From Eubacteriaceae bacterium ES3 (GTDB lineage: Bacteria > Bacillota > Clostridia > Eubacteriales > Eubacteriaceae): DNA of 32,000 nucleotides. A program made the position numbers and the translations under genes. Positions 1 to 12,594 of this stretch are shown here, piece after piece; the stretch's first letter is position 1; every line of letters starts with the position of its first letter. The notes below the pieces were generated by a model that saw only the letters and a list, made by a program, of their open reading frames with translations, did no database searches and had not been told where the DNA came from. Where the stretch lies: contig CP130741.1 of assembly GCA_030586155.1 (NCBI GenBank), positions 396,680 through 428,679 on the forward strand, given 5' to 3'.

Positions 1-102
1 GCAGACGCATTGGGGTGAATCAATTAAAAACTTGACGATCTCCAATCGAACAGGATGGCCTAGCGCCTTAAAAATTTTTACGGATATATCATTTGCGTTC
101 AT
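1..102 (-). CDS. ArsR/SmtB-family metalloregulator; only the N-terminal 34 codons are present because the gene runs off the left edge
   Basis: Absent from the ORF track because there is no stop in the window. My minus-strand translation from the ATG at 102..100 is MNANDISVKIFKALGHPVRLEIVKFLIDSPQCVC. FKALGHPxRLxI is the typical ArsR/SmtB N-terminal helix signature. The CVC lies where As(III)-sensing ArsR proteins carry their metalloid-binding cysteines. A GAGG lies 5 nt upstream of the ATG. Confidence 0.6.
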   Translation of the reverse strand, partial: MNANDISVKIFKALGHPVRLEIVKFLIDSPQCVC

Positions 103-146
103 TATTGCCTCATTTCTTTCAGTGGATTTTGACCACTTGTATATAT

Positions 147-175
147 ATTATAAAAAAATTTCAGCAATTTGACAA
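147..175 (-). promoter_or_regulatory. Sigma-70-like promoter for the ArsR-family gene, with a downstream 5-bp inverted repeat
   Basis: On the minus strand, TTGTCA (175..170) is followed by a 17-nt spacer and TATAAT (152..147). The inverted repeat AGTGG-N7-CCACT at 121..137 lies between the -10 and the start codon and is a possible autoregulatory operator. Confidence 0.5.
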
Positions 176-202
176 TGCCGATTAATCAGCTTTTAGAAAC
201 AG

Positions 203-475
203 TTAAAGTTTGATGCCCTTCAGCTGCGATTCGAAAGAAAAATCTAATGCAGCTGACATAAAGGCATTAAAATCTTCGAAAGATGTAGTGTTTTGAACGT
301 GTTGGTCAAAGATTTCTGGTGGAATTGCATCAAAACTTTCCTGAGAATATACTTCTAAGTCACAAGCGCTAAAAAAATTATCGAGGTTTTTGAAATTTGT
401 TTTGGCTTGCATAAAAGCTGGGCATAAATAAAACTTTATAGCTGAGTAATCACGATTTTTAATTTGGGCTGACAT
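203..475 (-). CDS. Hypothetical small acidic protein (90 aa), family not recognised
   Basis: The ORF has GGAG 8 nt upstream of the ATG. That RBS overlaps the end of the preceding gene, which indicates an operon. I recognise no motif. Confidence 0.5.
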   Translation of the reverse strand: MSAQIKNRDYSAIKFYLCPAFMQAKTNFKNLDNFFSACDLEVYSQESFDAIPPEIFDQHVQNTTSFEDFNAFMSAALDFSFESQLKGIKL

Positions 476-486
476 GTTATATTCTC

Positions 487-1026
487 CTATTCTGTTTCAT
501 AACCCAGTAGTTGCAGGTGCGATTCCAGACTCAGATAATTTGGTGCAAAAGCCTCTTCTTTAATATGCGGGCAGTCGTTGAGATGCGCAGTTCCCAAAAT
601 AAGTTTTGAAGAAAAAGCCATGCAGGAAGGTTGTGAGCAGTCCCGGCATCCCCTTTTTTGTGGCAATAGTTTGTAAAGCTGGATGGCATTAGGACGTTCT
701 CGGGTTTCGTTATTAGGGGTTATGTTTTCCCTGTTCTCCCAAGTTTCATTAATTAAATCAAAAATATGGTCAATCATCTCATAACATTCAGATTCATTAG
801 TCAGCTGAGTGCAGGTTAAATCCTGATCATGAATATTAACAATATGACTTTCAATTTTATAGGTAAAAGTTTGGGCTGCAGGTATATAGAGTCCGGTTTT
901 TATAACGCTATTTAAATAAGGCATCACTTCTGGCACAGCATTACTCATTTTGGCCCGAAATTTAATCCGGCCACCGCCGGTTGTGCAGGGTTTGATATAG
1001 ACAAGATTGATGGATGACAGAATCAT
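487..1026 (-). CDS. Fe-S-binding protein with a C-terminal CFeSP/RnfB-type [4Fe-4S] domain
   Basis: The C-terminal GCRDCSQPSCMAFSSKLILGTAHLNDCP gives C-x2-C-x4-C-x16-CP. This is the spacing of the 'putative Fe-S cluster' domain at the N-termini of the corrinoid Fe-S protein large subunit and RnfB. The start overlaps the upstream gene's stop by 4 nt (ATGA). Confidence 0.6.
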   Translation of the reverse strand: MILSSINLVYIKPCTTGGGRIKFRAKMSNAVPEVMPYLNSVIKTGLYIPAAQTFTYKIESHIVNIHDQDLTCTQLTNESECYEMIDHIFDLINETWENRENITPNNETRERPNAIQLYKLLPQKRGCRDCSQPSCMAFSSKLILGTAHLNDCPHIKEEAFAPNYLSLESHLQLLGYETE

Positions 1027-10509: not shown

Positions 10510-11126
10510 TGACGACAAAAGAAAAAATTGTAGATGAAGCACTGACCTTATTTTCGATAAACGGTTTTAAAGCAACGACGGTAAAATCCATTGCCGATGC
10601 GGTTGGGATCAAAGACAGTTCACTGTATAAACATTTTTCCAGCAAAAAAGAAATTTTTGATACAATTGTTGAAAAGATGTGGAAAAAAATGGAAGAGATG
10701 TCAGTCGAAATCGGTTTGCCTGATGAGAATGATTTTCTCAAAGCCGCTAACAAGTATGGAAATATGTCTCTAGAGGAATTGCAGGCTTTTAGCCGGATGG
10801 TTTTTCTTTTTTATTTAAAAGATGATTTTATTTCCCGCTTCTGGCGGTTGGCTAATATGGAGCAGTACAGCGATCCGGAGATCTATGAAATCTATCGTAA
10901 TATCTTTATGGAAGAAAGCATCGATTACCAGACCAGGTTGTTCATTGAAATGATCAGGAATGGTAGTTTTTCTTCAGGCAATCCCAAGGCAATGGCAATC
11001 AATTTTTATGCACCGATATTTTTTCTGCTCAGTAAATATAACGGGCGACCTGAACTTGAGGAAGAAGCTCTGGAAACGTTAGAATGTCAGGTTGAAGAAT
11101 TTTATAATATTTATAGCATGAAATAA
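10509..11126 (+). CDS. TetR/AcrR-family transcriptional regulator
   Basis: I take the start at the ATG at 10509, which overlaps the upstream stop (TAATG). The N-terminal HTH is KEKIVDEALTLFSINGFKATTVKSIADAVGIKDSSLYKHFSSKKEIF. The 10452 start in the track is an upstream extension. Confidence 0.85.
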   Translation: MTTKEKIVDEALTLFSINGFKATTVKSIADAVGIKDSSLYKHFSSKKEIFDTIVEKMWKKMEEMSVEIGLPDENDFLKAANKYGNMSLEELQAFSRMVFLFYLKDDFISRFWRLANMEQYSDPEIYEIYRNIFMEESIDYQTRLFIEMIRNGSFSSGNPKAMAINFYAPIFFLLSKYNGRPELEEEALETLECQVEEFYNIYSMK

Positions 11127-11130
11127 AAAA

Positions 11131-11224
11131 AGCCCTCCTCAAGTATTGATATGCTTCCTTCTAGAGACAGTTAAAATAATAACTGTTTACCGATGAAGGG
11201 CATATTAGTATCTTGAGGAGGGCT
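11131..11224. terminator. Very long imperfect hairpin acting as a bidirectional terminator between tetR and hgcB
   Basis: The outer stem is 13 bp: AGCCCTCCTCAAG (11131-11143) pairs with CTTGAGGAGGGCT (11212-11224). It continues inward through ATATGC/GCATAT, CCTTC/GAAGG and ACAGTT/AACTGT. An A6 run flanks it on the 5' side and a T5 run on the 3' side. Confidence 0.7.
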
Positions 11225-11238
11225 TTTTTAATGAATGC

Positions 11239-11508
11239 CTAACAGCAATCACAATCCGGCTCACCGCCGCTGAGCCAGCCATTGATAACGGCCACTGAAC
11301 AGCCAACGCCTGCTCTGACTGAAATCGCATCTGCGGGACAGTTTTTCGCGCAGGCACCACATTCCATGCAATTATCGAAATTGACAATTTTAGCCTTTTG
11401 GTTTTCTATCGAAAATACAGCGTGGGGACATACTTCCTTACATCGTCTGCATCCAATACATTTTTCAGCCGTCAGGTTGAGGGTAATAACATCTGAGAAA
11501 TATTTCAT
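11239..11508 (-). CDS. hgcB: Mercury-methylation ferredoxin HgcB (2x[4Fe-4S], C-terminal Cys pair)
   Basis: It has CIGCRRCKEVCP and CMECGACAKNCP, an additional conserved Cys in GVGCS, and a C-terminus ending CDCC. It starts 9 nt downstream of the hgcA stop on the same strand. Confidence 0.85.
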   Translation of the reverse strand: MKYFSDVITLNLTAEKCIGCRRCKEVCPHAVFSIENQKAKIVNFDNCMECGACAKNCPADAISVRAGVGCSVAVINGWLSGGEPDCDCC

Positions 11509-11517
11509 AAGGCCTCC

Positions 11518-12594
11518 TTATAAGCCAAAGGCTGCTAAAAGAATCATCAGGGAACCGACAATCGATGCAATAGCCAGCAGCGGAACAGCAATTTTCATTT
11601 CTTTTGTGACACCTGATAGAGAAGTAAAAGTTGATGATCCGGTAAAATTCATAGCAAAATAAGCAGAGACAGAGGGTAACAAAAGGAGATAACCAATCGA
11701 CATAATCAGCAGCTCTGAGAAATGCGATTCATTAAGCGCCATAAAGCCGCCTGTCCAAATGAGACCCAGGAGCCAACCCTTAAAAGCAAAAGCTTTTCCT
11801 GGAACAATGGGTAGCATTGCCGGCATCAGAACCGTGCCAGTAAAAAGTGATCCGACAATTAATAGAAAATCTGGGAGACCGAAAGGACGAACGGCAATTA
11901 AATTGATCAGAAATAACAGACCAAAAAATGAAAGCGACTTTTTAGCGGCGCCAAAAAATTCCAGTGGGGTTAAAACCAGTCTTTCTCGGAGGGTAAAGGT
12001 AACTCTGCGCATTTTATCAGTGGCCTTTAGTCCTGAACTTAAAAAGCTTTTGATATCGGCTGACCGAACTGGACCATAAACGACTGAGAATCCAGTGGCT
12101 TTACTGACTTCTTGAGCCGAAACACCAGGTGCCCCCAATTGAGGAAGAATGATCTGGCGGTGTGAGACAATTTCAGAAAGATATGTTTTTTCAATGCGAT
12201 TAATAATCTCTGACGTTCCAAAGGTCCCTTTTCCAGCAGCGCACCAGACATTGACTCCTTTAGTATCAATTACCATGATCCAGGCATCCAAAGAAGTGAG
12301 TTCCTTACGCAGTGCATCAAAGCTTAGTTTGTAATTGGCACTGACAAATACAGGGGTGTCGGCATCGGGATTGCCAACGGCATAGAGACCAGGATTAATT
12401 TTATAATTTTTCCGACCTATACCAAGACGCATTTTAATAGCTCCCAAATAATCTCCTGATTGCAGGTGTGTCGTAATAGTTGGGATTTTTCCCTTGGTAA
12501 TTTCAGTTTCACCTGTGATCCAGGGAGTATTAAGGTCATAGAGAGTAATGGCTTCCTCATGCTGGCAACAGCAGCAAGATTTTTCTTGACGCAT
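11518..12594 (-). CDS. hgcA: Mercury-methylation corrinoid protein HgcA (cytoplasmic corrinoid-binding domain plus C-terminal TM domain)
   Basis: The diagnostic cap-helix motif GVNVWCAAGKGTFGT is present (NVWCAAGKG at 12252..12226, Cys118). The flanking sequence is PGLYAVGNP...VFVSANYKLSFDALR...ILPQLGAPGVSA. The C-terminal third is hydrophobic, with 4-5 TM helices. I take the start at the ATG at 12594 (MRQEKSCCCC...), which has AAAGGA upstream. The 12678 start in the track adds an implausible AT-rich leader. Confidence 0.9.
   Translation of the reverse strand: MRQEKSCCCCQHEEAITLYDLNTPWITGETEITKGKIPTITTHLQSGDYLGAIKMRLGIGRKNYKINPGLYAVGNPDADTPVFVSANYKLSFDALRKELTSLDAWIMVIDTKGVNVWCAAGKGTFGTSEIINRIEKTYLSEIVSHRQIILPQLGAPGVSAQEVSKATGFSVVYGPVRSADIKSFLSSGLKATDKMRRVTFTLRERLVLTPLEFFGAAKKSLSFFGLLFLINLIAVRPFGLPDFLLIVGSLFTGTVLMPAMLPIVPGKAFAFKGWLLGLIWTGGFMALNESHFSELLIMSIGYLLLLPSVSAYFAMNFTGSSTFTSLSGVTKEMKIAVPLLAIASIVGSLMILLAAFGL

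Follow-up and report, generated by a model that had tools for sequence, protein, structure and literature searches.

Whether the arsenic-type genes that lie beside the mercury-methylation genes hgcAB in the acetogen ES3 belong to the same system as hgcAB is the question raised by the window analyzed here, a 32,000-nucleotide stretch of the chromosome of Eubacteriaceae bacterium ES3 (contig CP130741.1, positions 396,680 to 428,679). An earlier note on this DNA had listed six elements in the first 12.6 kb, namely an ArsR-family gene with a CVC motif, a low-molecular-weight-phosphatase-type arsC, an MFS exporter, a split COG0701/DUF318-type permease, a cluster of DGC and GcvH genes, and hgcAB, and had proposed the exporters and Cys-rich carriers among them as candidates for the missing steps of mercury uptake, delivery and export. 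We mapped the window using its open reading frame (ORF) listing and scans with Pfam and NCBIfam, with the Pfam scans covering the genes of 1–16 kb. All six elements are present, and the descriptions of several (the ArsR gene, arsC and the “exporter”) need correction; a cysteine desulfurase, a 179-amino acid (aa) Fe-S protein, a radical SAM/SPASM gene, a 123-aa Fe-S protein, two ferredoxins, and a second radical SAM gene with a TetR-family regulator had not been listed. We consider it likely that three independent units lie side by side in the 12.6 kb, and that they do not form one system. These would be an arsenic-type island (positions 1–9114) of a kind typical of Eubacteriaceae, a TetR-controlled radical SAM pair (9316–11126), and a two-gene hgcAB cassette (11239–12698) that has its own promoter and occupies a conserved chromosomal site.

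We compared the window with the equivalent region of close relatives, which share a conserved framework of flanking genes encoding a nitroreductase, DnaJ, a 137-aa protein and ArsR on the left, and a GGDEF-EAL protein, an amino-acid ABC transporter, Fapy glycosylase and a methyltransferase on the right. ES3 has both the block and hgcAB at this site. A Eubacteriaceae metagenome-assembled genome (MAG; L002), with protein identity to the window of 77–98% for all but one gene, has a colinear arsR-to-arsC block, a 3.7-kb insertion, and the radical SAM and TetR genes, with no hgcB in the 512 bp after TetR; hgcB in the window begins 113 bp after TetR. In a PWP16-type relative that is frequent in metagenomes and is 72–97% identical across the block and flanking genes, the block, arsC, and the radical SAM and TetR genes are all present and hgcAB is absent, with 130 bp after TetR followed by an LRR/ChW gene and the GGDEF-EAL gene; a tblastn search found no HgcA in this relative. 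The strain ES2 has hgcAB at the site, in the order GGDEF-EAL, LRR/ChW, hgcA, hgcB, TetR, radical SAM, and lacks the block, with arsC adjoining arsR ~7 kb away, an arrangement that matches what a clean arsR-to-arsC deletion would leave. ES2 does carry a version of the module, located 2.46 Mb from its hgcAB. That version begins with a DGC gene, arsR, an 88-aa gene, the Fe-S protein gene and the desulfurase gene, continues with genes for an ArsR-like protein, the radical SAM/SPASM protein, the 123-aa protein, a ferredoxin and DGC-GcvH, and ends with a ferredoxin gene, arsA, a 93-aa gene, arsD and two DGC genes.

The block therefore occurs without hgcAB, and hgcAB without the block. The location of hgcAB is fixed between the TetR and GGDEF-EAL genes, with the neighboring genes of the hgcAB-less relative being 72–92% identical, and the radical SAM/TetR pair is kept beside this location with or without hgcAB. 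In a comparison of window positions 11127–12737 with L090 positions 11713–11842 and ES2 (L001) positions 9662–11353, hgcAB behaves as a two-gene insertion or deletion. The nearest relative of the window HgcA is that of ES2, with 77% identity, and a search with HgcA returned nothing between 100% and 77%; this gap is consistent with both block-bearing relatives lacking hgcA. Since relatives carry either unit alone, the neighbors of hgcAB are unlikely to be the missing parts for uptake or export of mercury, and a block broken up among relatives is the outcome that the earlier note had itself named as evidence against its proposal. We conclude, with considerable confidence, that the island is independent of hgcAB.

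To our knowledge, the uptake and export components of mercury methylation are still unassigned, and in ES3 the block that lies physically adjacent to hgcAB is rich in thiols and encodes two transporters. These features suit the proposal that the DGC and GcvH proteins deliver Hg(II) to HgcA, that the MFS protein and the ArsP-type permease export methylmercury, and that ArsR coordinates the whole, as does the report that an ArsR-like regulator controls hgcAB in Pseudodesulfovibrio mercurii ND132. We looked for hgcA wherever the block's conserved genes occur. A scan of metagenomes with an alignment of the 123-aa protein returned 80 loci, and those of 8 kb or longer, 43 loci with a combined length of 708 kb that fall into 39 clusters at 95% nucleotide identity, served as a census set, which was searched by tblastn with proteins from the window and ars proteins from relatives. 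HgcA was found in none of the 39 clusters. Three more distant clostridial hgcAB loci (L007, L008 and L009; 62–63% HgcA identity) were likewise devoid of DGC, MFS and ArsP genes; in these loci, an arsR gene overlaps the start of hgcA and is followed by hgcB, and L009 continues as arsR-hgcA-hgcB-acr3-arsC. The ArsR proteins linked to hgcA are 110–118 aa long and have both the motif CGELCAC and a cluster of Cys at the C-terminus, whereas the window ArsR, judged from its sequence, is of the module-type subfamily. Furthermore, hgcA has its own sigma-70-like promoter (12669–12698, minus strand), the position of which is kept in ES2, and upstream of hgcA there is no copy of the 23-bp element that marks the module promoter (described below). 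The region upstream of hgcA (12595–12737), one of the four at which the earlier note had suggested testing ArsR binding, shares nothing with the island promoters. Taken with the separation of block and hgcAB in both directions among close relatives, these observations make a role for the island in mercury methylation highly improbable.

The -35/-10 spacer of the hgcA promoter contains a short inverted repeat (12676–12690), which reads CTATAGACTTCTATG on the hgcA strand. At the matching position in ES2 the repeat is another one, CCACA-N5-TGTGG. The repeat in the window may be an operator.

The identity of the cassette itself is secure. HgcA (11518–12594, minus strand), a corrinoid protein, matched NF040863 with 451.7 bits (cut-off 275) and has the cap-helix motif NVWCAAGK in its translation, and the ferredoxin HgcB (11239–11508, minus strand) matched NF040864 with 124.6 bits (cut-off 99) and has the C-terminus DCDCC with its Cys pair; both scores are above the NCBIfam equivalog cut-offs, and the two genes are separated by 9 bp. 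HgcA starts with MRQEKSCCCCQHEE, which includes four consecutive Cys at residues 7–10 (12565–12576) in an N-terminal extension. A 2022 preprint describes a CU or CC motif in the N-terminal extension of most HgcA proteins, and CCCC would be an all-Cys version of that motif. The next gene upstream of hgcA, a TM1586-type nitroreductase gene (12738–13592, minus strand), shares its strand and stands at a position where relatives have an LRR/ChW gene on the opposite strand, and hgcA keeps its own conserved promoter despite this upstream gene. The nitroreductase gene thus occupies the place immediately upstream of hgcA where an ArsR gene on the same strand was looked for, and the hgcA-linked ArsR of L009, used as a tblastn query, had no match in the window.

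A link between hgcAB and ars genes is already known from published surveys (McDaniel et al., 2020; Gionfriddo et al., 2020; Gionfriddo et al., 2023; Goni-Urriza et al., 2020), and the general pattern of hgcAB near ars genes is therefore not new. Like the published loci, which have arsR-hgcAB with or without acr3, arsC or arsM, the window has an ArsR-family gene and a low-molecular-weight-phosphatase-type arsC no more than a few kb from hgcAB. Unlike them, it has no arsR fused upstream of hgcA, its nearest arsR being 11.4 kb away and of another subfamily; it has no acr3; and its ars-type island is also found at the same site in hgcAB-negative relatives. The window is thus an atypical, non-conserved instance of the published pattern.

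These surveys also invite the explanation that the window descends from an ancestral arsR-hgcA-hgcB-acr3-arsC operon that has decayed, with the arsC and arsR genes near hgcAB as its remnants and perhaps still part of a shared arsenic regulon. L009 has precisely that operon, with an arsC that is 70% identical to the arsC of the window; L007 and L008 have arsR-hgcA-hgcB; and ES2 has arsC and arsR within ~7 kb of hgcAB. However, the arsC genes linked to the module are 75–78% identical to that of the window, arsC and the 98-aa type of ArsR are components of the module in genomes without hgcAB, arsR and arsC forming a unit with a DGC gene in L010–L017, and both hold the same chromosomal site in hgcAB-negative relatives. 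The hgcA-linked ArsR is of a different subfamily, and neither that subfamily nor acr3 has left a trace in the window. We therefore regard descent from such an operon as quite unlikely, and for arsC and arsR it is a less likely explanation than membership of the island.

What, then, is the island? Its most constant part is a group of five consecutive genes on the plus strand, encoding a 123-aa stand-alone Fe-S protein that resembles the N-terminus of HdrA (3722–4093), a 102-aa 2x[4Fe-4S] ferredoxin (4096–4404), a fusion of a DGC domain to GcvH (4401–5237), and two DGC proteins of 132 aa (5230–5628) and 131 aa (5628–6023). The DGC/GcvH cluster of the earlier note is therefore real, and spans 4401–6023. 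Among the 43 loci of the census, which had been recovered with the 123-aa protein, the ferredoxin was found in 43, DGC-GcvH in 42, and each DGC gene in 39; we refer to the five genes as the invariant core. The accompanying genes indicate its company. An ArsR-family gene was present in 36 of 39 clusters, and 20 of 39 had one or more of the genes arsA, arsD, acr3 and arsC or the two-gene permease within about 10 kb, as compared with a chance of 1–2%, by our own rough estimate, of meeting an ars structural gene in a random 16-kb stretch of a 3.5-Mb genome. The desulfurase and Fe-S protein pair was present in 11 of the 43 loci.

Individual loci give the same picture. In Eubacterium aggregans, arsR is divergent from the core, which is followed by genes for a NUDIX protein, ArsC, ArsA, ArsD and a further ArsR. 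In L010–L017, the core is accompanied by a divergent arsR-DGC-arsC unit. Acetobacterium woodii DSM 1030 (CP002987) has ArsR, ArsD, MFS, CDF and DGC genes downstream of its core. The flanking genes are thus arsenic-type, as the earlier note had said, with the same core sitting inside ars clusters in E. aggregans and ES2 and beside ArsR-family, arsA/arsD, acr3, arsC or ArsP-type genes in most metagenome loci, and conservation of the module places the grouping of these arsenic-type genes far beyond chance. We also agree that this is not a standard ars operon. The canonical arsRBC and arsRDABC operons resemble the island in having a CVC-type ArsR and a thioredoxin-type arsC, and sister islands carry arsA and arsD, or acr3; the window, by contrast, has no ArsB or Acr3 pump, no ArsA and no ArsD, and comprises at least five transcription units. 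In the full 32 kb, tblastn at E<=10 detected no Acr3 and no remnant of arsA, arsD, acr3, the arsR of the hgcA type or ES2's second ArsR-like gene, and there was no Pfam match to ArsB/SBF among the genes of 1–16 kb. The comparisons support a description of the island as an arsenic-type, ArsR-associated module with variable export genes, of which the MFS gene and the split permease are one variant.

The ArsR/SmtB repressor gene (1–102, minus strand) runs out of the left edge of the window, such that only the first 34 codons, MNANDISVKIFKALGHPVRLEIVKFLIDSPQCVC, are present, including the CVC motif (residues 32–34) that the earlier note had recognized. Its match to NF033788 (E 8e-6) is below the cut-off because the gene is truncated by the window edge. 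Full-length orthologues in L002, L001, L004 and L093 are 98 aa long, are 94% identical over those 34 residues, and have only two Cys, those of the As(III)-type CVC motif; this 98-aa type is divergent from the core in 14 loci. To the left of arsR, close relatives have only convergent housekeeping genes. The product of arsC (8698–9114, minus strand) belongs to the low-molecular-weight phosphatase family (PF01451), and arsenate reductases fill the first 14 places among its 15 PDB matches, led by 3t38 (Corynebacterium glutamicum ArsC1', which is thioredoxin-coupled; E 3.7e-21). The two proteins share an MGC-x3-CP motif, and the catalytic Cys relay, consisting of the Cys10/CX5R loop and a C-x3-C pair, aligns with that of ArsC1'; however, the scores against the NCBIfam ArsC models (95 and 77 bits) are under the cut-offs (215 and 174).

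The transport genes are the variable part of the island. The MFS gene (6377–7570, plus strand) matched PF07690 with 172.8 bits, confirming the family; its best NCBIfam matches are efflux subfamilies but are far under their cut-offs, and a function in export, as implied by the name “exporter”, is presumed from those matches. Both the MFS gene and the preceding gene for a 68-aa ferredoxin (6170–6376, plus strand) are variable accessory genes, being missing in the PWP16-type relative. The split permease consists of two half-size subunits of the ArsP_1/COG0701 type, of 159 aa (7602–8081, plus strand) and 179 aa (8078–8617, plus strand; 4-bp overlap), in place of a single polypeptide of ~300 aa spanning PF03773. 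Both pass the PF03773 (ArsP_1) gathering cut-off of 32.3, with 34.9 and 47.5 bits, each aligns to the first half of the model, and the subunits are 32% identical to one another (E 1.6e-10). A frameshift as the origin of the split was ruled out, since the two-gene form is kept in relatives and metagenome loci.

On the other side of the core lies the unit of the cysteine desulfurase (1023–2177, minus strand; TIGR01977, 458.9 bits, cut-off 377). It includes the gene for the 179-aa protein (487–1026, minus strand), which has a C-terminal Fe-S domain (PF04060) of the corrinoid Fe-S protein type, and, in close relatives only, a gene for a 90-aa protein with no family match (203–475, minus strand). 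The 179-aa protein combines an unassigned N-terminal part with an Fe-S domain known from the N-terminus of the large subunit of the corrinoid Fe-S protein, and HgcA is related to the corrinoid domain of the same protein; yet the 179-aa gene accompanies the desulfurase in hgcAB-negative genomes. Between this unit and the core lies the radical SAM/SPASM gene (2550–3602, plus strand), whose product is nearest to a family of maturases of tungsten-cofactor oxidoreductases (333 bits, under the cut-off of 380).

We next considered how these genes might be regulated. Each unit has its own conserved predicted promoter: a sigma-70-like promoter of arsR (147–175, minus strand; TTGTCA-17-TATAAT) that is conserved in four related loci, a sigma-70-like promoter of the desulfurase unit (2244–2272, minus strand) beside a conserved, AT-rich, imperfect palindrome, and the core promoter (3653–3681, plus strand; TTGACT-17-TACAAT). 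The core promoter region (3653–3706) includes a 23-bp element, CCATAAGCAAATAATTAAATAAT, at positions 3684–3706, directly after the -10 hexamer. L002 and the ES2 module share this element, and loci in which arsR and the core diverge have related forms of it. The window has a single copy, and shuffled sequences gave no match. It is our best candidate for an operator, and lies outside the four sites that the earlier note had suggested as targets of ArsR. Of those sites, that at 121–137 does form an inverted repeat, which three orthologous arsR leaders do not share; that at 2381–2414 is conserved in the closest MAG only; and that at 6029–6048 contains TTTAGAC-TAT-GTCTAAA (6031–6047), a hairpin with 7-bp arms after the last DGC gene.

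The unit between the island and hgcAB has regulatory sequences of a different kind. The second radical SAM gene (9412–10509, plus strand) is outside the arsenic island and is widespread in Clostridia, and the TetR-family regulator gene paired with it follows on the same strand (10509–11126). The promoter of this pair (9316–9344, plus strand, within the 9316–9375 region) has near-identical 18-bp palindromes, AGCTAGTGAATACTAGCT at 9322–9339 and AGCTAGTGTTCACTAGCT at 9357–9374, that bracket the -10 region and are probably operators of the adjacent TetR.

The five-gene core appears to be undescribed, and in our view is a more interesting lead than the adjacency to hgcAB. We found no description of a DGC-GcvH/ars module in the literature, including when searching by A. 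woodii locus tags, and genes for DGC, glycine cleavage or heterodisulfide proteins go unmentioned in a paper on ferredoxin-linked arsenate reduction in Fusibacter. The 123-aa protein is 84–98% identical over its 120 best database matches, which include Acetobacterium, Eubacterium species and ES2, and its conservation is 79–98% across Eubacteriaceae and the recovered metagenome loci. When its profile is matched to the N-terminal [4Fe-4S] domain of HdrA, four Cys align. The GcvH part of the fusion matched TIGR00527 with 120.9 bits (cut-off 115.85), and the fusion to an N-terminal DGC domain is atypical for that family. When residue conservation was computed over 55–81 distinct homologues of the core proteins, the four Cys of each DGC domain, the eight Cys of the ferredoxin and the five Cys of the 123-aa protein were invariant, and the lipoyl-lysine (ES.KA) was at least 95% conserved in 64 homologues of DGC-GcvH. 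Profiles of the DGC paralogues matched one another in hhalign with probabilities of mostly 92–99.8% (68% for one pair) and showed no relation to the HdrA-like protein and the 93-aa protein. The 131-aa DGC protein (DGC131) had no sequence match in PDB.

The 93-aa protein is rich in Cys (GCCG..., ending in GCC), and has no Pfam match on record. In several of the module loci, its gene separates arsA from arsD; it is found at 13919–14200 of L004, with homologues in L010, L011, L017, L019, L020 and L071. We had also considered a relationship to the SAO organometallic selenoprotein system, which was dropped since no component is common to that system and the block.

From these features we propose, tentatively, how the island might work. 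As(III) would bind the CVC site of ArsR and release it from the element downstream of the core promoter, thereby derepressing the units; arsC would reduce As(V) using thioredoxin; and the MFS protein and the two-gene ArsP-type permease, or ArsA/ArsD or Acr3 in other islands, would remove As(III) or an organoarsenical. The core itself would handle As(III) on two kinds of thiol, the Cys of the DGC domains and the dihydrolipoyl arm that the GcvH fusion carries, with the two Fe-S proteins feeding low-potential electrons from the ferredoxin pool to keep the thiols reduced. The desulfurase, Fe-S protein and radical SAM genes might mature the core proteins or act as a source of sulfur, as would be needed for thio-arsenic species. 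This mechanism for the core is a possibility that we put forward with reserve, and we are similarly cautious about the broader suggestion that strict anaerobes have in the core an undescribed system for handling arsenic, which sequesters, passes on or reductively transforms As(III), thio-arsenicals or organoarsenicals.

Among the closest known systems is “operon C” of P. mercurii ND132 (ArsR5-ArsP-ArsE-DGC protein), which is arsenic-induced and, like the window, brings together a regulator of the ArsR family, a permease of PF03773 and a DGC protein of PF08859. The window differs in having no thioredoxin-like ArsE, in having its permease split into two genes, in having three DGC domains, one of them fused to GcvH, and in adding two dedicated Fe-S proteins, the desulfurase and the radical SAM gene.

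Several observations weigh against the account that we favor, in which an arsenic-handling island lies beside an unrelated hgcAB cassette. A recognizable ars structural gene is present in only about half of the core loci, in a census that detects only homologues of the query set. The DGC profiles had an hhalign probability of at most 1.6% against the profile of ArsD, the As(III) chaperone, and DGC domains are annotated as probable Zn sites. Single-sequence AlphaFold2 models were unusable, with pLDDT of 38.7 for DGC131 and 32.6 for DGC-GcvH. With respect to hgcAB, arsC and a module-type arsR are near hgcAB in both hgcAB-positive strains (~7 kb away in ES2), and some regulatory cross-talk between island and hgcAB is possible. 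Lastly, the analysis of ES3 covered the 32-kb window, and the absence of acr3 or of a second island applies to that window.

The first of these observations also bears on a different function for the core, in which it would serve sulfur trafficking or the maturation of cofactors (Fe-S, lipoyl, or Mo/W) under redox or persulfide sensing by an ArsR-family protein, its proximity to ars genes being incidental. The absence of a detected ars structural gene from about half of the core loci speaks for this function, as do the desulfurase and Fe-S protein of the block and the similarity of the radical SAM/SPASM protein to tungsten-enzyme maturases (333 bits). In A. woodii, an XdhC gene also flanks the core. 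A gene for a glutamate-cysteine-ligase-like (gshA-like) protein and an ATP-grasp gene directly precede it there (L095, 7339–9654), which suggests synthesis of a low-molecular-weight thiol beside the core.

In the sHdr-LbpA pathway of sulfur oxidation, GcvH-like lipoate-binding proteins work with Hdr-like Fe-S proteins. The core recalls this pathway, by a functional analogy, in having a lipoyl carrier beside an Hdr-related Fe-S protein, ferredoxin-type clusters and a sulfur-mobilizing enzyme. By contrast with that pathway, the window has only the N-terminal domain of HdrA, and the genomic company of the core consists of ars genes and not sulfur-oxidation genes; no Pfam match to HdrB/HdrC, DsrE or TusA was found among the genes of 1–16 kb. 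Moreover, ars structural genes in 20 of 39 clusters are far above our rough estimate for chance, the core lies inside arsR/arsA/arsD clusters in E. aggregans and ES2, the ArsR has the As(III)-type CVC motif, and the DGC gene of ND132 is arsenic-induced. On balance, a core devoted to sulfur or cofactors with an incidental ars neighborhood seems to us unlikely, and we retain the arsenic-handling island as the better account.

The remainder of the window has features that are separate from these questions. The GGDEF-EAL protein of the conserved framework is encoded at 13790–15934 on the plus strand. In the right flank, three genes (19398–21882) are inserted relative to the otherwise syntenic ES2 and PWP16-type relative: a 260-aa gene without a family, a minus-strand, thioredoxin-reductase-like Pyr_redox_2 gene, and a gene for a zinc-ribbon protein. 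Close to its right end, the window also has an ORF of 1516 aa (26066–30616). Searches with Rfam at gathering thresholds gave no matches in the 32 kb.

For research on mercury methylation, this locus is a caution that thiol-rich proteins and transporters near hgcAB in one genome do not nominate the missing steps of uptake and export. It also documents hgcAB as a presence/absence cassette of two genes at a fixed chromosomal site in the acetogens ES2 and ES3, in the description of which neither mercury nor arsenic is mentioned. For research on arsenic, the lead is a conserved five-gene core that accompanies arsR, arsA/arsD, acr3, arsC and ArsP-type genes. The core is present in A. woodii DSM 1030, which we take to be a genetically tractable model acetogen, and its function is therefore directly testable there. 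If our reading is correct, the core, often accompanied by the desulfurase, the Fe-S protein and the radical SAM/SPASM gene, would be a new, ferredoxin-driven module of the ars regulon, and would provide the first assigned role for DGC domains.

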